In this document: positions 1 through 37,809 of the stretch, in pieces | Layout of the letters: each line of letters begins with the position of its first letter | Position numbering within the stretch: the first letter of the stretch is position 1 | Assembly: GCA_038087875.1 (NCBI GenBank) | Contig: CM075988.1 | Location: forward strand, 10,728,001-10,792,000 | Direction: 5' to 3' | DNA length: 64,000 nucleotides | From: Malacoraja senta | Lineage: Eukaryota | Notes under the pieces: model-generated | What the model was told of the DNA's origin: nothing | What the model saw: the letters and a program-made list of their open reading frames with translations, nothing else | Database searches by the model: none | Program-made: the position numbers and the translations under genes

Positions 1-1989
1 ATCCAAGTCACCTTGCAGTCTCCTAGCATCCTCCTCACAGCTAACACTGCCCCCCAGCTTAGTGTCATCCGCAAACTTGGAGATGTTGCTTTCAATTCCC
101 TCGTCCAGATCATTAATATAAATTGTAAATAGCTGGGGTCCCAGCACTGAGCCTTGCGGTACCCCACTAGTCACTGCCTGCCATTGTGAAAAGGACCCGT
201 TTACTCCTACTCTTTGCTTCCTGTTTGCCAGCCAGTTCTCTATCCACATCAATACTGAACCCCCAATACCGTGTGATTTAAGCTTGTATCCTAATCTCTT
301 ATGTGGTACCTTGTCGAAAGCCTTCTGAAAGTCCAGATACAACACATCCACTGGTTCTCCCCTATCCACTCTACTAGTTACATCCTCGAAAAATTCTATA
401 AGATTCGTCAGACACGATTTACCTTTCGTAAATCCATGCTGACTTTGTCCAATGATTTCACCACTTTCCAAATGTGCTGCTATCCCATCTTTAATAACTG
501 ACTCTAGCAGTTTCCCCACTACCGATGTTAAACTAACTGGTCTGTAATTCCCCGTTTTCTCTCTCCCTCCCTTCTTAAAAAGTGGGGTTACATTTGCTAC
601 CCTCCAATCCTCAGGAACTACTCCAGAATCTAAAGAATTTTGAAAAATTATCACTAATGCATCCGCTATTTCTGGAGCTACTTCCTTAAGTACTCTGGGA
701 TGCAGCCTATCTGGCCCTGGTGATTTATCGGCCTTTAATCCATTCAATTTACCCAACACCACTTCCCGACTAACCTGGATTTCACTCAGTTCCTCCATCT
801 CCTTTGACCCGCGGCCCCCTGCTATTTCCGGCAGATTATTTATGTCTTCCTTAGTGAAGACGGAACCAAAGTAGTTATTCAATTGGTCCACCATATCCTT
901 GTTCCCCATGATCAATTCCCCTGTTTCTGACTGCAAGGGACCTACATTTGTTTTAACTAATCTCTTTCTCCTCACATATCTATAAAAACTTTTGCAGTCA
1001 GTTTTTATTTTCCCTGCCAGTTTCCTTTCATAATCTATTTTCCCTTTCCTAATTAAGCCCTTTGTCCTCCTCTGCTGGTCTCTGAATTTCTCCCAGTCCT
1101 CTGGTATGCTGCTTTTTCTGGCTGATTTGTACGCAACATCTTTTGCTTTGATACTATCCCTGATTTCCCTTGTTATCCACGGATGCACTACCTTCCCTGA
1201 TTTATTCTTTTGCCAAACTGGGATGAACATTTTTTGTAGTTCATCCATGCAGTCTTTAAATGCCTTCCATTGCATATCCACCGTCAACCCTTTTAGAACT
1301 AATTGCCAGTCAATCTTGGCCAATTCACGTCTCATATCCTCAAAGTTACCTTTCTTTAAGTTCAGAACCGTTGTTTCTGAATTAACAATGTCACTCTCCA
1401 TCCTAATGAAGAACTCAACCATATAATGGTCACTCTTGCCCAAGGGGGCACGCACAACAAGTCTGCTAACTAACCCTTCCTCATTACTCAATACCCAGTC
1501 TAGAATAGCCTGCTCTCTCGTTGGTTCCTCTACATGTTGGTTTAGATAACTATCCCTCATACATTCCAAGAAATCCTCTTCCTCAGCACCCCTGCCAATT
1601 TGATTCACCCAATCTATATGTAGATTGAAGTCACCCATTATAACTGTTTTGCCTTTGTTGCACGCATTTCTAATTTCCTGTTTGATGCCATCCCCAACTT
1701 CACTACTACTGCTAGGTGGCCTGTACACAACACCCACCAGCGTTTTCTGCCCCTTAGTATTTCGTAGCTCTACCCATACCGATTCCACATCCTCCAAGCT
1801 AATGTCCTTCCTTTCCACTGCGTTAATCTCCTCTCTAACCAGCAACGCTACCCCACCTCCTTTTCCTTTCTCTCTATCCCTCCTGAATATTGAATATCCC
1901 TGGATGTTCAGCTCCCAGCCTTGGTCACCCTGGAGCCATGTCTCCGTGATCCCAACTATATCATAATCATTAATTGCTATCTGCACGTT
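1..1989 (-). mobile_element. CR1-clade LINE copy A, 5'-truncated inside the endonuclease, running off the window start
   Basis: Colinear with 2855-4843 at a constant offset of 2854 with scattered substitutions. Ends at ...ctgcacgtt, directly against the microsatellite tail of copy B. Confidence 0.95.
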
Positions 1990-4900
1990 ACATAGATACA
2001 TAGATACATAGAAATTAGGTGCAGGAGTAGGCCATTCGGCCCTTCGAGCCTGCACCGCCATTCAATACGATCATGGCTGATCATCCAACTCAGTATCCCG
2101 TACCTGCCTTCTCTCCATACCCCCTGATCCCTTTAGCCACAAGGGCCACATCTAATTCCCTCTTAAATATAGCCAATGAACTGGCCTCAACTACCCTCTG
2201 TGGCAGAGAGTTCCAGAGATTCACCACTCTCTGTGTGAAAAAGTTTTTCCTCATCTCGGTCTTAAAGGATTTTCCCCTTATCCTTAAGCTGTGACCCCTT
2301 GTCCTGGACTTCCCCAACATCGGGAACAATCTTCCTGCATCTAGCCTGTCCAACCCCATAAGAATCTTGTACGTTTCTATAAGATCCCCTCTCAATCTCC
2401 TAAATTCTAGCGAGTATAAGCCAAGTCTATCCAGTCTTTCTTCATATGAGAGTCCTGACATCCCAGGAATCAGTCTGGTGAACCTTCTCTGCACTCCCTC
2501 TATGGCTATAATGTCCTTCCTCAGATTTGGAGACCAAAACTGTACGCAATACTCCAGGTGTGGTCTCACCAAGACCCTGTACAACTGCAGTAGAACCTCA
2601 CTGCTCCTATACTCAAATCCTCTTGCTATGAAGGCCAACATACCATTCGCTTTCTTCACTGCCTGCTGCACCTGCATGCCTACTTTCAATGACTGGTGTA
2701 CCATGACACCCAGGTCTCGCTGCATCTCCCCATTTCCTAATCGGCCACCATTTAGATAATAGTCTGCCTTCCCGTTTTTGCTACCAAAGTGGATAACCTC
2801 ACATTTATCCACATTATACTGCATCTGCCAAACATTTGCCCACTCACCCAGCCTATCCAAGTCACCTTGCAGTCTCCTAGCATCCTCCTCACAGCTAACA
2901 CTGCCCCCCAGCTTAGTGTCATCCGCAAACTTGGAGATGTTGCTTTCAATTCCCTCGTCCAGATCATTAATATAAATTGTAAATAGCTGGGGTCCCAGCA
3001 CTGAGCCTTGTGGTACCCCACTAGTCACTGCCTGCCATTGTGAAAAGGACCCGTTTACTCCTACTCTTTGCTTCCTGTTTGCCAGCCAGTTCTCTATCCA
3101 CATCAATACTGAACCCCCAATACCGTGTGATTTAAGTTTGTATCCTAATCTCTTATGTGGTACCTTGTCGAAAGCCTTCTGAAAGTCCAGATACAACACA
3201 TCCACTGGTTCTCCCCTATCCACTCTACTAGTTACATCCTCGAAAAATTCTATAAGATTCGTCAGACACGATTTACCTTTCGTAAATCCATGCTGACTTT
3301 GTCCAATGATTTCACCACTTTCCAAATGTGCTGCTATCCCATCTTTAATAACTGACTCTAGCAGTTTCCCCACTACCGATGTTAGACTGACTGGTCTGTA
3401 ATTCCCCGTTTTCTCTCTCCCTCCCTTCTTAAAAAGTGGGGTTACGTTTGCTACCCTCCAATCCTCAGGAACTACTCCAGAATCTAAAGAGTTTTGAAAA
3501 ATTATCACTAATGCATCCACTATTTCTGGAGCTACTTCCTTAAGTACTCTGGGATGCAGCCTATCTGGCCCTGGTGATTTATCGGCCTTTAATCCATTCA
3601 ATTTACCCAACACCACTTCCCGACTAACCTGGATTTCACTCAGTTCCTCCATCTCCTTTGACCCGCGGCCCCCTGCTATTTCCGGCAGATTATTTATGTC
3701 TTCCTTAGTGAAGACGGAACCAAAGTAGTTATTCAATTGGTCTGCCATATCCTTGTTCCCCATGATCAATTCACCTGTTTCTGACTGCAAGGGACCTACA
3801 TTTGATTTAACTAATCTCTTTCTCTTCACATATCTATAAAAACTTTTGCAGTCAGTTTTTATGTTCCCTGCCAGTTTCCTTTCATAATCTATTTTCCCTT
3901 TCCTAATTAAGCCCTTTGTCCTCCTCTGCTGGTCTCTGAATTTCTCCCAGTCCTCTGGTATGCTGCTTTTTCTGGCTAATTTGTACGCATCATCTTTTGC
4001 TTTGATACTATCCCTGATTTCCCTTGTTATCCACGGATGCACTACCTTCCTTGATTTATTCTTTTGCCAAACTGGGATGAACAATTTTTGTAGTTCATCC
4101 ATGCAGTCTTTAAATGCCTTCCATTGCATATCCACCGTCAACCCTTTTAGAACTAATTGCCAGTCAATCTTGGCCAATTCATGTCTCATACCCTCAAAGT
4201 TACCTTTCTTTAAGTTCAGAACCGTTGTTTCTGAATTAACAATGTCACTCTCCATCCTAATGAAGAACTCAACCATATTATGATCACTCTTGCCCAAGGG
4301 GGCACGCACAACGAGTCTGCTAACTAACCCTTCCTCATTACTCAATACCCAGTCTAGAATAGCCTGCTCTCTCGTTGGTTCCTCTACATGTTGGTTTAGA
4401 TAACTATCCCTCATACATTCCAAGAAATCCTCTTCCTCAGCACCCCTGCCAATTTGATTCACCCAATCTATATGTAGATTGAAGTCACCCATTATAACTG
4501 TTTTGCCTTTGTTGCACGCATTTCTAATTTCCTGTTTGATGCCATCCCCAAATTCACTACTACTGCTAGGTGGCCTGTACACAACGCCCACCAGCGTTTT
4601 CTGCCCCTTAGTGTTTCGCAGCTCTACCCATACCGATTCCACATCCTCCAAGCTAATGTCCTTCCTTTCCACTGCGTTAATCTCCTCTCTAACCAGCAAC
4701 GCCACCCCACCTCCTTTTCCTTTCTCTCTATCCCTCCTGAATATTGAATATCCCTGGATGTTCAGCTCCCAGCCTTGGTCACCTTGGAGCCATGTCTCCG
4801 TGATCCCAACTATATCATAATCATTAATTGCTATCTGCACGTTCAACTCATCCACCTTATTACGAATGCTCCTTGCATTGAGACACAAAGCCTTCAGACT

Positions 4901-6115
4901 TGTTTTTACAACGCTCTTACCCCTTATACAATTATGTTGAAAAGTGGCTCTTTTTGATTTTTGTCCTGGATTTGTCTGCCTGCCACTTTTACCTTTCACC
5001 TTGCTACCTATTGCTTCCGCCCGCATTTTGCACCCCTCTGTTTCTCTGCTCACCCATTTAAGAACCCCACCACCTCTTATTCTCTGTTTATTATTGTTTT
5101 CTTCTTTCCCCCCTACATGTTGGGTCTGAGTGCTTTCCTTCTCTGCCTCCTGCCTCACACACTGTCTAATAGCATTCTCTATTTGAGTCCCTCCCCCCAA
5201 CCATTCTAGTTTAAAGTCTCCCCAGTAGCCTTTGCAGATCTCCCTGCCAGGATATCGGTCCCCCTCAGGTTCAAGTGCAACCCATCCTTTTTGTACAGGT
5301 CGTACCTTCCACAAAAGAGGTCCCAATGATCCAGAAATTTGAATCCCTGCCTTCTGCACCAGTCCTTCAGCCACGCATTTATCCTCCACCTCGCTCCATT
5401 CCTACTCTCACTGTCGCGTGGCACAGGCAGTAATCCCGAGATTGTTACCTTCGCTGTCCTTCTCTTTAACTCCCCTCCTAACTCCCTAAATTCTCCTTTC
5501 AGGACCTCTTCTCTTTTTTTACCTATGTCATTGGTACCTATATGTATCACGACTTCGGGCTCCTCTCCCTTCCCTTTCAGGATGTCTTGGACACGTTGAG
5601 ACACATCACAGACCCTGGCACCAGGGAGGCAAACTACCATCCGAGTCTCCCGACTGCATCCACAGAATCGCCTGTCTGACCCCCTAACTATAGAGTCCCC
5701 TATTAATATTGCCCTCCTCTTCTTACCCTTCTGAGCAACAGGACCGGTCTCTATACCGGAGGCCCGGCCGCTGTCGCTACCCCCAGGTAGGCTGTCCACC
5801 CCAACAGTGCTCAAACAGGAGTACTTATTGTCAAGGTGTACAGCCACCGGGGTACTCTCTAGTCCCTGCCTGTGCCCCTTGCCTCTCCCAACCGTGATCC
5901 ACTTGCCTGCCTCCTGTGGTGTTGGAGTGACCACATCCCTGTAACTCCTCTCGATGACTTCCTCGCTCTCCCTGACCAGACGGAGGTCATCGAGCTGCTG
6001 CTCCAGGTTCCTAATATGGTCCATTAGGAGCCCCATCTCGATACACCTGACGCAGATGTGGACGTCTGGAGGGCTATCAGACTCCATGACTTCCCACATC
6101 TGACATCCAGAACAG
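1990..6115 (-). mobile_element. Near-full-length CR1-clade LINE copy B (ORF1+ORF2+3'UTR, 5'UTR missing)
   Basis: Two long minus-strand ORFs, a short 3'UTR, and a (TATCTATG)n octamer tail at 1990-2011. Confidence 0.95.
2090..5215 (-). CDS. CR1 ORF2: APE endonuclease + reverse transcriptase, uninterrupted
   Basis: APE motifs LNARSI, ITETW, GDFN, SDH. RT motifs [32 protein letters not shown]1 C-terminus RPHLEYCVQFWSP. First in-frame ATG is at 5026; the frame stays open upstream across the ORF1 stop. Confidence 0.95.
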   Translation of the reverse strand, partial: FKLEWLGGGTQIENAIRQCVRQEAEKESTQTQHVGGKEENNNKQRIRGGGVLKWVSRETEGCKMRAEAIGSKVKGKSGRQTNPGQKSKRATFQHNCIRGKSVVKTSLKALCLNARSIRNKVDELNVQIAINDYDIVGITETWLQGDQGWELNIQGYSIFRRDREKGKGGGVALLVREEINAVERKDISLEDVESVWVELRNTKGQKTLVGVVYRPPSSSSEFGDGIKQEIRNACNKGKTVIMGDFNLHIDWVNQIGRGAEEEDFLECMRDSYLNQHVEEPTREQAILDWVLSNEEGLVSRLVVRAPLGKSDHNMVEFFIRMESDIVNSETTVLNLKKGNFEGMRHELAKIDWQLVLKGLTVDMQWKAFKDCMDELQKLFIPVWQKNKSRKVVHPWITREIRDSIKAKDDAYKLARKSSIPEDWEKFRDQQRRTKGLIRKGKIDYERKLAGNIKTDCKSFYRYVKRKRLVKSNVGPLQSETGELIMGNKDMADQLNNYFGSVFTKEDINNLPEIAGGRGSKEMEELSEIQVSREVVLGKLNGLKADKSPGPDRLHPRVLKEVAPEIVDALVIIFQNSLDSGVVPEDWRVANVTPLFKKGGREKTGNYRPVSLTSVVGKLLESVIKDGIAAHLESGEIIGQSQHGFTKGKSCLTNLIEFFEDVTSRVDRGEPVDVLYLDFQKAFDKVPHKRLGYKLKSHGIGGSVLMWIENWLANRKQRVGVNGSFSQWQAVTSGVPQGSVLGPQLFTIYINDLDEGIESNISKFADDTKLGGSVSCEEDARRLQGDLDRLGEWANVWQMQYNVDKCEVIHFGSKNGKADYYLNGGRLGNGEMQRDLGVMVHQSLKVGMQVQQAVKKANGMLAFIARGFEYRSSEVLLQLYRVLVRPHLEYCVQFWSPNLRKDIIAIEGVQRRFTRLIPGMSGLSYEERLDRLGLYSLEFRRLRGDLIETYKILMGLDRLDAGRLFPMLGKSRTRGHSLRIRGKSFKTEMRKNFFTQRVVNLWNSLPQRVVEASSLAIFKRELDVALVAKGIRGYGEKAGTGY

Positions 6116-6126
6116 TATGTGTACAT
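5206..6126 (-). CDS. CR1 ORF1: CxxC..CxxC knuckle, coiled coil, SGNH/GDSL esterase domain
   Basis: CSGC...CVRC, LEQQLDDL coil, and SGNH blocks GDS, PGA, GTND, DGLH. The first 3-4 codons probably come from flanking DNA. Confidence 0.92.
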   Translation of the reverse strand: MYTYCSGCQMWEVMESDSPPDVHICVRCIEMGLLMDHIRNLEQQLDDLRLVRESEEVIERSYRDVVTPTPQEAGKWITVGRGKGHRQGLESTPVAVHLDNKYSCLSTVGVDSLPGGSDSGRASGIETGPVAQKGKKRRAILIGDSIVRGSDRRFCGCSRETRMVVCLPGARVCDVSQRVQDILKGKGEEPEVVIHIGTNDIGKKREEVLKGEFRELGGELKRRTAKVTISGLLPVPRDSESRNGARWRINAWLKDWCRRQGFKFLDHWDLFCGRYDLYKKDGLHLNLRGTDILAGRSAKATGETLN

Positions 6127-6431
6127 ATGTGTACTGATAAGGTAGACTGTCGAGGAAGAGGTGCAATAGGTTTGTACTCTGCAACGATATTTTCTATCCT
6201 CTAAAAGTCCACTATAACAGCTTCAGGGTTTGATGAGCTTGGTCACTGTGGTGCAACTGAACCATTCTTTATGAAGGACATTGAGTTCATGTTCCAGACC
6301 TTATTTCATGCTCTTGATCTCTTTGTGCTGCTTCTGAGTATTACTGGCATTTGGGTGTACACCACCAATGAACTACAGGACGGCAAGAAGAGTTTTGGTC
6401 ACAAAACACTGGGGCTTCAGAATAGATCTAA

Positions 6432-35664: not shown

Positions 35665-36947
35665 TTATACTCTCAATCCATGCCTTTGTGTAACTCCTTT
35701 CTATCCACCTATTGCTTTTGTCTTTTTTGGTGGGGTTGTAGCTTTGACTGGTTTGCCTTGGAGATTAACTACAATGCATTTTGTAGATGGGACATGTTGC
35801 AGTGTACATTTTTGGTGGAGTGAGTGAAAGTTAAAGAACTGGATTCTTACTAATCATTTTATTTTACTCTAAGTGCTCTCGAGCACATTTGATTCAGCAG
35901 AAATGGCAAACTTTGACGAGGAAAACAGCAGACGATGTTAAAGTGATTGTTAATGGGTGAACGCTCATCTTCAGTTTCAAGACTCTTGGAAAAGATTGAT
36001 GATTTGTTTTATTAAAGACTGTGAGGACCACATCGTTATTCTTTGGAAGGAGACTGTATTAGCCGTACATGTCTGTATAACTGAGAAAATCTGCGTCTGC
36101 TAGAGTTTTGTGATTGGATCTCAATCACAATCATCAAATGTGATATTGCTAAATCTGAACACAGTCAATGTCTAGCATTGTAACTAACAATGTAGCTGGG
36201 TTTTACTTCAGTTGGATGAAGCATTGTGTGTTCATTCCAGATTGTATACATAATTTTGAAATTGTATGAGCATAATTTCACGGTGGGTGTATCATTGCTT
36301 TGGTTTATTTTCCTTTGTGTTTTTGCTGCACTTCTCATCAGATTCTGGAAACACTTCCACCCACACAACACCCAACATTCTTACTGTGAGTACGTCAGCC
36401 AATCTTGCTTTGGAGTATTGCTGCAATGCAGAACAATAAACTACCTTTAATAAAAAGGGCACTGTCAGAAACATCTGCATTAAATACATTTAATAGATTA
36501 CTGAACAAAAGAACCTAACAAAAAAGGCAAGTAGGCTAAAACAGATGCAAAGTGCTGGAATCACTCAGCAGGCCAGGCAGTAGCTCAGGAGAACATGGAT
36601 AGGTGATGTTTTGGGTCAAGACCCTCCTTCAGTCTGACTGTAGGTGGGGAGGGGAGAAGAAAGCTGGAAAAGGGGAGAGGCATGTCAACGCATGGCCGTA
36701 ATAGGTCAACATAGGCGAGGGGGGAGTTTTAATCAGCAGATGGTTGGAGCAAGGGCCAGAGTTAAGAACAGAAAATGTAAGCCAAGTTTGAAGAGTTTAA
36801 GGGGTTGTTCTAATCTTAGTAAACAGGACATAATGGGACAATTGTCTAAATTGTCAGATAGATTGGGAGGCACAGCGGCGCAGTGGTAAAGTTGTTACCT
36901 TACAGTGCCAGACACCTGGGTTTGATCCTGACTACGATGCTGTCTGT

Positions 36948-37083
36948 CTTCTTCTTTTGTGTGGCGTGCACAGCCTAAAGTTGTTGGACAACTTGTTCTA
37001 TGTGATCTTCCGTTTGTGCACGTCGAGTTGATTGCATTATTCGAAACAGGGCGGACCACGTGAAGGTTGCAATCTTCCACCCC
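36948..37083 (-). mobile_element. 136-nt retroposed element with (AGA)n tail and 11-bp TSD
   Basis: Perfect TSD atgctgtctgt at 36937-36947 and 37084-37094; 3' end CACACAAAAGAAGAAG. Confidence 0.9.
37030..37083 (-). ncRNA. Minimal HDV/CPEB3-like ribozyme fold (catalytic position is A in this copy)
   Basis: P1 GGGGTGG/CCGCCCT, P2 GATTGCA/TGCAATC, P3 ACC/GGT, L3 TTCACGT, vestigial P4, J4/2 ATAA. Confidence 0.75.
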
Positions 37084-37809
37084 ATGCTGTCTGTGGAGAT
37101 GTGGTACATTCTCCCTGTAACCTTGTGGGTTTACTCGGGGTGCTCCGGTTTCTCCCCACACTCCAAAGTCACATGGGTTTGTAGGTTAATTGGCTTTGGT
37201 AAAATTGTAAATTGGCCCGCATCTGTAGGATAGTGCTAGTGTATGGGAATCGCTGGTCGCATGGACACGGTGGGTCGAAGGGCCTGTTTCTGCGCTGTAT
37301 CTCTAAAGTCTACAGGCTAAAGTATAAAGAAACCAACACTGCAACTACTTTAAAAAGTTGTGGTGAGGAATGTAGAGTTCATGTCTAGAGGGCATGTCTT
37401 CAGTCAGGACACGAGGTACTTTCAGCTGTCCACGTGGGTAAAAATGCTTCAGCCTTCTCTTTATCATTCATTTTGTCCAACATAATTCATGACTCAAATC
37501 GCATTATGGATTCAGCTCAGAGCCAAGGAAAGAGGTCATGTCCATGCCAGCTTTGTAGATGTGGCATGCCAAGCTTTGATTTGTCCCTAGGATCCATCCA
37601 AACAGACCGTAAAATTCCTGAAATAGTATTGTATATAATGATCAATGAATTGAAATAACTTTTTGGATGCATAATGATCTAATTCTGGTGAGTAATTGCA
37701 ACCTTTTCCTCACAAAGTGGAATACTTCTCTATTGGTGTCATCAATTAAATCCTCTATCGCCACTATTGGTGGTTTCAATAATATAATTGACATTAAACT
37801 TTAATGAGT

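Follow-up and report, generated by a model that had tools for sequence, protein, structure and literature searches.

Long interspersed nuclear elements (LINEs) of the RTE, baggins, and R2 types have no promoter and, according to the accessible part of a review (PMC6765202), are freed from co-transcripts by a 5' hepatitis delta virus (HDV)-like ribozyme; the same part describes hundreds of intergenic copies whose downstream sequence is conserved while the upstream sequence varies, and mentions that some non-autonomous short interspersed nuclear elements (SINEs) use such ribozymes. The R2 short internally deleted elements (SIDEs) of Drosophila are short and non-coding, and a 5' HDV-like ribozyme sets their end by self-cleavage of the co-transcript (available portion of Eickbush & Eickbush 2012, PMC3414825). 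In trypanosomatids, the LINE L1Tc and its non-autonomous partners such as NARTc share an HDV-like ribozyme, formed by the first 77 nt, for release from longer transcripts (PMC3185411 and PMC4035085, each available in part). The related CPEB3 ribozyme is reported only from mammals in the accessible parts of PMC4836649 and PMC8233481. In this study, we describe a 136-nt insert in a 64,000-nt stretch of the genome of the skate Malacoraja senta (assembly GCA_038087875.1, contig CM075988.1, positions 10,728,001 to 10,792,000, forward strand), which is hereafter called the window. Judged from its sequence, the insert is most probably a dead copy of a non-autonomous, promoter-less retroposon that is headed by a minimal CPEB3-type HDV-like ribozyme, predicted to be self-cleaving, in which the helix P4 is missing.

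The insert lies on the minus strand at 36948-37083 and, by reading of the sequence, is enclosed by perfect 11-bp target-site duplications (TSDs). Its parts are listed below in window coordinates, where P, J, and L denote paired helices, joining segments, and loops, respectively.

37084..37094, minus strand: upstream TSD copy, 11 bp, ACAGACAGCAT, by direct reading
36948..37083, minus strand: retroposon copy, 136 nt, subfamily A, with the private changes C44A and A82C
37077..37083, minus strand: 5' strand of P1, GGGGTGG; G1 (37083) is the first base of the insert and the predicted first base after cleavage
37075..37076, minus strand: J1/2, AA, preceding the 5' strand of P2
37068..37074, minus strand: 5' strand of P2, GATTGCA
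37055..37067, minus strand: P3, ACC/GGT, enclosing L3, TTCACGT (37064-37058)
37048..37054, minus strand: 3' strand of P1, CCGCCCT; the pairing includes G1.U
37041..37047, minus strand: G37 (the P1.1 partner of C22), U38, and the 5-nt linker TTCGA where other family members carry P4
37037..37040, minus strand: J4/2, ATAA in this copy, CTAA or CGAA in the family; 37040 is the position of the catalytic C, here A
37030..37036, minus strand: 3' strand of P2, TGCAATC, which closes the 54-nt head
36963..37029, minus strand: variable body, portions of which are deleted or replaced in other subfamilies
36948..36962, minus strand: 3' terminus, ACACAAAA plus GAA repeats; the family form is ACACGAAA or ATACGCAA plus (GAA)2-7
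36937..36947, minus strand: downstream TSD copy, 11 bp, ACAGACAGCAT, by direct reading
36860..37250, plus strand: older SINE-like host repeat, split by the insertion, with approximate limits read by eye

The sequence of the host repeat continues across the TSD. Within the body, the hairpin AAGTTGT-CCA-ACAACTT (36995-36979, minus strand) is surrounded by a long-range 8-bp stem, CGTGCACA/TGTGCACG, in which 37022-37015 pairs with 36972-36965. The insert, its TSDs, the parts of the 54-nt head, the position of G1 as the first base inside the TSD, the reduction of P4 to a stub, the A at the catalytic position, the AAGTTGT/ACAACTT hairpin, and the GAA-repeat tail, given as (AGA)n, had all been read from the window alone in an earlier, model-made note (the original prediction), and every one of them is present at its place on the minus strand. 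That note had also seen no tRNA or 5S head; ARAGORN called no tRNA in either the retroposon or the SINE-like host repeat, and a 701-nt Rfam scan around the window copy matched neither 5S nor 7SL RNA at E<=10 and found no ribozyme. The element is accordingly not a SINE in the strict sense, i.e., one with an internal RNA polymerase III (Pol III) promoter derived from tRNA, 5S, or 7SL RNA. It has the traits of a non-autonomous, LINE-dependent retroposon, being short, non-coding, and dispersed, with variable TSDs and a simple-repeat tail.

The element belongs to a young family of thousands of copies. A DNA search of the assembly (1.94 Gb, 6182 contigs) with the element returned 1111 first-look candidates, 40 of which were scored and are 98-100% identical, and nt 1-135 are covered by 39 of these 40. 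An exact head pattern of 35 nt (nt 20-54, known variants allowed) has at least 2,755 matches genome-wide, versus 0 for the reversed pattern, and exact patterns of nt 30-60 and nt 95-125 have 578 and 577 matches, respectively. Thirty copies, two of which are one locus assembled twice, were read with their flanks. As the original prediction had expected from the single copy, many copies start at G1 beside TSDs: 29 of the 30 begin with GGGGTGG, the remaining copy having TT for the first two G residues, and exact TSDs of 5-14 bp adjoin G1 in 26; the other four have 10-11-bp TSDs with one mismatch, as do two of the copies with short exact ones. Sampled words of the element are also present in sequencing runs labelled with seven organisms. 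In the assembled contigs of three such runs (3626, 9217, and 1021 contigs matching the element), the depth falls approximately 100-fold exactly upstream of G1, and 89, 214, and 42 contigs (345 in total) extend at G1 into unrelated sequence with a consensus agreement of 0.35-0.36. Contigs of the runs marked as RNA break at repeat borders anyway. An extension upstream of G1 was looked for and not found, and the 5' ends are sharp.

The catalytic position of the head, nt 44, is C in 26 of the 30 copies (A in two, T in one, and G in one), in 97 of the first 100 listed exact matches to the nt 30-60 pattern, and in 92 of the first 100 listed matches to a wider head pattern (6 T, 1 G, and 1 A in the others). 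No variant reaches 5% at this position in the contigs of the three other runs. The J4/2 consensus is C(T/G/A)AA, with T, G, or A as the next base, and the C(G/T)AA with a catalytic C that had been predicted for the consensus is thus found as C(T/G)AA. The catalytic cytosine stands first in J4/2 in the family but not in the window copy, which has A at 37040; since this A replaces the family's C at nt 44, the window copy is presumably a mutated, dead ribozyme (C44A). Substitution of the catalytic C is treated as inactivating for HDV-like ribozymes in the accessible part of a preprint (10.1101/2023.06.13.544163).

The predicted fold of the head is a nested double pseudoknot with 7, 7, and 3 bp in P1, P2 (which crosses P1), and P3, respectively, plus C22-G37 as P1.1, and the pair that closes P1, G1.U36, involves the base with which 29 of the 30 copies begin. 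This predicted fold is more than a chance arrangement. A descriptor of our own, in which P1 has 7 bp including G1.U, P2 has 6-7 bp, P3 has 3 bp, L3 has 6-8 nt, a G after P1 goes with a C in L3, and CNRA precedes P2, gave 90 matches in 643,314 nt of real DNA on both strands, all of them in the family and none elsewhere. It fits the consensus at 1-54, and the window copy misses it only because of A44. In Rfam scans of 80 nt around a consensus-type copy (L005) and a subfamily-B copy (L060), two HDV ribozyme families are the only ones out of 4227 to match at E<=10. L005 scores 16.0 bits with RF02682 (E 0.29) and 14.8 bits with RF00094 (E 2.3), and L060 scores 21.7 bits with RF00094 (E 0.11) and 14.4 bits with RF02682 (E 0.68). 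These matches cover the full model span and start at G1, with L3 aligned, C44 on the catalytic C of the model, and P4 shrunk to 5 nt.

The same genome contains sister ribozymes of the CPEB3 type. A search of the assembly with the CPEB3_ribozyme model (RF00622, gathering score 35) gave approximately 102,000 rough candidates, 59 of which were scored; at least 39 copies (39 of the 59) lie above the cut-off, all of them full length and the best at 64.2 bits (E 2.7e-14), and none of 14 control genomes passed. A scan of five sister copies at the gathering threshold gave 59.7, 59.7, 51.4, 46.1, and 43.7 bits. The 29 sister copies that were fetched sort into at least five retroposon families (F1 to F5), and the wider finding is a set of retroposons in a skate that are headed by predicted CPEB3-type ribozymes. 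The F1 head reads GGGGATC AA GGTAGAA GCG TTCACGT CGC GATCCCT GT, an 8-bp P4, and CGAA TTCTACC. Downstream of it lie a conserved leader and a reading frame, and five of seven copies start with GGGGATC after unrelated flanks. F2 has a second P4-less head of 54 nt (GGGGTC AA GGAAAGA GCG TTCACGT CGC GGCCCCT GT TTYCA CCAA TCTTTCC), which passes the RF00622 threshold (43.7 bits for L092). Since the F2 copies start with GGGGTC, their P1 seems to have 6 bp and no G.U wobble. This head is carried by a small element of approximately 150-180 nt with the end CGATAAGAAG and its own TSDs of 10-11 bp (L092:201-254(-), L093:72-125, L094:68-121, L111, and L112, on contigs C13, C2, C6, and C20). F4 (L091, L100, L102, and L107; e.g., C1:380487059-380487137) has a likeness to the mammalian CPEB3 model that extends to P2 and P4, and L100 scores 51.4 bits with RF00622. 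Neither a frame nor a clear end was seen in the bodies of F3 to F5, including F4, in 600 nt downstream of one copy each.

For comparison, three heads of the 136-nt family (subfamilies A and B and the hairpin-less one) and 20 of the 29 sisters, i.e., 23 sequences, were aligned with MAFFT, and L087, L102, L106, L108, L109, L111, L115, L116, and L117 were left out as truncated or unparsed. All helices came into register unaided, and the columns C18, T20, C22, C24, T26, C34, G37, C44, A46, A47, and T48 are invariant. In the double pseudoknot, 89.4% of 520 cells are paired, versus 73.4 +/- 1.1% after shuffling, and 96 cells are changed on both sides, versus 27.4 +/- 5.1, with none of 500 shuffles as high in either respect; because the cells of such related sequences do not represent independent events, these figures are counts and not probabilities. 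Both-sided change occurs in 19 of 26 pairs. When the 3' partners were slid by 1-3 columns as a control, 32-44% of the cells paired and at most 13 were changed on both sides. The pseudoknot helix P2 is 96.8% paired, with six of its seven pairs changed on both sides, and most of the unpaired cells are found where copies have a ragged 5' end, in the first four columns of P1. Between the head of the 136-nt element and the F1 ribozyme, 8 of the 17 pairs of P1-P3 differ on both sides and none is broken, and the two are alike in J1/2 (AA), L3, the GU after P1, and J4/2. The compensatory changes in P1 and P2 that the original prediction had foreseen are therefore plentiful relative to the sister ribozymes, while within the family itself only the change of U5.G32 to U5-A32 is seen.

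A covariance model (R1) that contains P1, P3, and P4 but omits P2 was derived solely from the 20 non-SINE sequences. In an unfiltered run on 72,235 nt, comprising the window and five loci, the six heads of the 136-nt family were the top six matches, with 17-24 bits and rough E values of 4e-4 to 2e-2, compared with 12.8 bits for the best background match. All six matches start at G1, and five span the full 54 nt, the match of the window copy ending 3 nt early. With the default filters, only two of the heads were reported in 38 sources (232 kb).

At least four body plans share the one head. Subfamily A is the type of the window copy. Subfamily B has CGAA as J4/2 and approximately 12 differences from A in the body, so that A and B differ at 2 of 54 places in the head and at approximately 12 of 80 in the body. 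In a short subfamily, the head is joined straight to nt 73 onward (18 of the first 100 listed matches to a pattern of the head followed by non-SINE bases). The hairpin-less subfamily (L079 and L080) lacks the AAGTTGT hairpin, carries an internal TTTT run, and makes up 15 of the first 100 listed tail-pattern matches. At the subfamily level, the head varies at A8G in J1/2, at T45G/A, which is the free N of CNAA, and at G32A, which turns the wobble U5.G32 into U5-A32 and is found in 32 of the first 100 listed head-pattern matches.

Several other forms of the element were observed among the fetched loci. Many 5'-truncated copies of approximately 48 nt all start at C88, the foot of the AAGTTGT hairpin (L039/L040, L051-L056, and L065), and most of them have TSDs. 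In L072 (C1:355371464-355372197, minus strand), the ribozyme head is followed by approximately 18 unrelated nt without the normal tail, and the flanks show an apparent 10-bp duplication, CAGCATCATA. A miniature inverted-repeat transposable element (MITE) of approximately 250 nt, whose terminal inverted repeats read GGGCCTGTCCCAC, interrupts the element's ACAACTTTAGG at the same TTA in L082, L084, L085, and L070; it is found in both orientations, which at a single site implies repeated independent insertions, and its junction appears in 9 of the first 100 listed tail-pattern matches. L050 and L057, which were considered as chimeras or template switches, are nested insertions of another SINE with its own TSDs. 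Some loci occur as near-identical pairs, flanks included (L003/L004 and L039/L040, on different contigs or 108 kb apart; 99.5% identity over 7.3 kb for L039/L040). Such pairs are haplotigs or recent segmental duplications, and the copy counts are therefore slightly inflated.

A candidate for the LINE that copies the family is the element headed by the F1 ribozyme. One copy (C1:217,550,497 to 217,553,632) is approximately 3.14 kb long, has an 11-bp TSD, and contains one uninterrupted frame of 940 codons with an Exo_endo_phos domain at its start and an RVT_1 domain. At least four matches to its head and tail are spaced approximately 3.14 kb apart, and a search with its last 220 nt gave 225 first-look candidates, the best 40 of which are 99-100% identical. 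Homologues are proteins of 900-1000 amino acids on contigs of 3.0-3.4 kb, with 50-65% identity, from lancelet, sea urchins, insects, a lizard, and fishes. Members of the RTE clade are approximately 3.2 kb long and have a single frame with an N-terminal apurinic/apyrimidinic endonuclease and a reverse transcriptase (RT), followed by a short repeat tail. By this architecture, the candidate is plausibly RTE-like. It ends in ...AAAGACACGAAAA(GAA)3 in two copies, with ACACGAAAA(GAA)3 as the terminal piece, and subfamily A of the 136-nt element ends in ...GCCACACGAAA(GAA)n; ACACGAAA plus the GAA repeats is common to both. This shared tip suggests that the LINE is the helper, and a young RTE-like LINE of approximately 3.14 kb, either this one or a close relative, is plausibly the most likely helper. 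For the RTE-type partner of the original prediction, this LINE is a candidate by its architecture and its GAA tail, but its ribozyme head, though related, is different, and the shared sequence is restricted to this tip. SIDEs and NARTc have both ends identical to those of their parent LINE; here, 8 of the 17 stem pairs differ, and the tails are alike only at the tip.

A LINE that shares both ends with the element, for which the original prediction had also called, was sought and not found by patterns that exclude the SINE copies themselves. The route through the 31-nt tail word gave 577 matches, and the 10 fetched places without a head were mutated or truncated copies of the element. The hairpin and tail preceded by non-SINE bases gave 131 matches, which were subfamily B and copies truncated at C88; the head followed by non-SINE bases gave 391, which were indel variants, the short subfamily, and interrupted copies; the last 31 nt preceded by non-hairpin bases gave 410, which were the hairpin-less subfamily and MITE-carrying copies; and the last 27 nt gave 356 without any recurring context. 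A genome search with PF00078 yielded 159,857 RT candidates, 150 of which were scored. A Pfam scan of the open frames in 311 kb of sampled DNA revealed no other GAA-tailed LINE; apart from other RT fragments and a Tc1-like transposase, it gave a CR1-like LINE whose tail is (CTATGTAT)n.

A CR1-like LINE is present in the window itself (1-6222, minus strand), where the first frame (5209-6222, minus strand) has a GDSL-esterase domain and the second frame (2093-5401, minus strand, 1103 amino acids) has an endonuclease and an RT. Its tail consists of CTATGTAT repeats near 2010-1990 and is followed directly by the frame of another copy (1-2061), and its 3' end is the commonest repeat among the fetched flanks of the 136-nt element. 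A 321-residue frame at L032:4152-5114 (minus strand) has the Tc1/mariner-type transposase domains HTH_Tnp_Tc3_2 and DDE_3. A TMEM74 frame in one of the fetched loci points to a skate or a close relative and not to a mammal as the host: its identity is 95% with Amblyraja radiata, 92% with Rhinoraja longicauda, 81% with a stingray, and 64-71% with most of the listed sharks, a single catshark reaching 54%. In approximately 25 of the first 100 listed GAA-run matches, on contig C1, the sequence TGAAGAAGAAGAAT is found, which may be an internal motif of another repeat.

We infer a mechanism in three steps, in which co-transcription, cleavage, and the identity of the copying LINE are the conditional parts. 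A copy in any transcribed region would be read through within a longer RNA; its head would then fold (P1, P1.1, P2, and P3) and cut just 5' of G1, so that the freed RNA begins with G1; and a LINE RT that primes on GAA repeats would copy this RNA by target-primed reverse transcription up to the G1 end. The expected outcome is copies that start exactly at G1, with (GAA)n tails and 5-14-bp TSDs, and the proposed cut together with copying to the very end would explain the same first G in 29 of the 30 copies. This model is established for R2, L1Tc, and RTE-type elements, as far as the available parts of PMC6765202 and PMC3414825 go. According to a preprint, products of HDV-like cleavage are poorly recovered by libraries that depend on ligation.

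Several observations weigh against a cleaving ribozyme copied by the LINE found here. The head is below the Rfam gathering scores (at most 21.7 bits versus 50 for RF00094 and at most 16.0 versus 44 for RF02682) and has no match with RF00622 at E<=10, so that, of the HDV and CPEB3 models named in the original prediction, the HDV families are the only ones to match, in register with G1 but under threshold. Its nested-fold energies, which ignore pseudoknots, are no better than those of shuffled sequences (the head has z = -0.04, and nt 1-36 have z = -0.77); P4 is absent, the linker TTCGA standing in its place; no pair is altered on both sides within the family; and the covariation counts rest on related sequences, 23 of the 32 in hand. 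As for the helper, the stretch shared with the candidate LINE amounts to 13-14 terminal nt by BLAST, mostly repeat, the two heads differ in all three stems, and pattern searches excluding SINE copies found no LINE with the element's own head or 29-nt tail. The sub-threshold scores and the lack of an energy signal would suit a head that is kept for another reason, such as internal promoter activity or, as in R2, binding of the LINE protein, with a fold that does not cleave and with G1 as a transcription start or a preferred RT stop; the linker TTCGA is also reminiscent of the core of the Pol III B box. We nevertheless consider such a head improbable, since no tRNA, 5S, or 7SL match was obtained, and the TTTT run inside one subfamily is a poor fit with Pol III transcription. 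Every base that is invariant in the core of the sister ribozymes is kept, including C44, A46, A47, U20, C22, and G37, all stem differences relative to the sisters are compensated, and F2 is a second P4-less family that lies above the CPEB3 threshold. P4 is not required for HDV-like activity, and P4-less minimal forms are reported to be active, in the part of the preprint that was available (10.1101/2023.06.13.544163).

That the insert is the 5'-truncated tail of a LINE, or a fragment of a longer repeat, would agree with its LINE-like GAA-repeat tail and with the existence of the approximately 48-nt truncated copies, but has almost no probability left: 29 of the 30 copies share the first base with TSDs adjoining, no upstream context recurred in the pattern searches, and the sharp 5' ends and the 345 contigs that diverge exactly at G1 mean that the element did not arise by truncation of a longer one. 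A sharp 5' end and several subfamilies would also be expected of retropseudogenes of a small RNA gene with an external promoter, i.e., of evolving master genes, for which the HDV-like look would be inherited and irrelevant. This origin is very unlikely, however, because no Rfam family but HDV matches, at least four body architectures occur under one head, and the same type of head is found on a LINE and on another small element. A more serious alternative concerns only the helper: the ribozyme may be as predicted, and the copying LINE may be a different, unsampled one that ends in GAA repeats and possibly bears the element's own head. The brevity of the shared tip, the difference between the heads, and the small scored fraction of the RT candidates leave this a substantial possibility, albeit one that we favor less than the LINE found here or its close relative, which is young, like the element, has the same tail repeat and an 11-bp TSD in the one copy examined, and is the only GAA-tailed LINE in the 311 kb sampled. 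The preferred reading, a promoter-less retroposon with a predicted self-cleaving head, is well supported in silico, and such an RTE-like LINE is its plausible helper.

The head of the element is close to the mammalian CPEB3 ribozyme (RF00622; PMC4836649 and PMC8233481, in the parts available). Both have the L3 UUCACGU at nt 20-26 and GU after P1, a likeness that had been noted in the original prediction and that agrees with the Rfam CPEB3 consensus, which has GU after P1 and CGAA as J4/2, and with the available passage of PMC10919898, in which a mouse Cpeb3 primer, 18 nt from the cleavage site, shows the same L3 at the same position. In both, moreover, P1.1 consists of one G-C and U-U, and G1.U marks the cleavage site, which is a predicted one in the skate; subfamily B shares the 4-nt J4/2 CGAA. 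On the other hand, the CPEB3 ribozyme is single-copy and intronic and has a P4 helix, whereas the head of the skate element lacks P4 and has other stem sequences. The skate ribozymes offer outgroups to the mammalian one, and a retroposon origin of this memory-linked ribozyme becomes directly testable. We see about an even chance that skates keep an old vertebrate lineage of CPEB3-type-headed RTE-like LINEs and their parasites, that the mammalian CPEB3 ribozyme is a domesticated head of such a retroposon (F4 agrees with the mammalian model in P2 and P4 as well), that the P4-less 54-nt heads are the smallest natural HDV-like ribozymes of eukaryotes, and that thousands of intact copies in transcribed DNA could cut host RNAs. 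The family is, moreover, a natural experiment on minimal ribozymes, with thousands of copies, a natural C44A allele, stem swaps, and forms with and without P4.

The kind of element is already known, HDV-like heads being carried by R2, L1Tc, baggins, and RTE, and used non-autonomously by R2 SIDEs and NARTc. R2 SIDEs, as far as PMC3414825 was available, resemble the skate family in having a 5' HDV-like ribozyme head and a 3' end that is used by a LINE RT, cleavage being conjectural in the skate; they are, however, internal deletions of their own LINE, confined to ribosomal DNA and rare, whereas the skate family is dispersed in thousands of copies, its P4-less head is unmatched in the LINEs found, and approximately 8 nt plus the repeats are common with the candidate LINE. 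The L1Tc/NARTc pair, in the accessible parts of PMC3185411 and PMC4035085, differs from the skate element, which has a vertebrate host and a head of 54 nt versus 77 nt. With the minimal and theta ribozymes (Riccitelli 2014, as cited, and 10.1101/2023.06.13.544163, available in part), the head shares the P4-less double-pseudoknot core, a catalytic C first in J4/2, and a length of approximately 50-60 nt, but those ribozymes come from metagenomes and gut phages and lie beside tRNAs, while the skate head belongs to a eukaryotic retroposon. The full texts searched, supplements not being covered, contain no earlier report of a 136-nt element of a cartilaginous fish with a CPEB3-type head. The known examples of ribozyme-headed LINEs, as the available part of PMC6765202 presents them, are mainly from insects and other invertebrates; the skate case adds a cartilaginous fish, a CPEB3-type core, and an element of 136 nt. 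What is new is a vertebrate retroposon of this size whose whole 5' module is a P4-less predicted ribozyme, a form so far from metagenomes and phages, and whose core is of the CPEB3 type in a genome that also has dozens of copies above the Rfam CPEB3 threshold. The skate family is thus set apart from the known cases by its size, its missing P4, its CPEB3-type core, and its vertebrate host.

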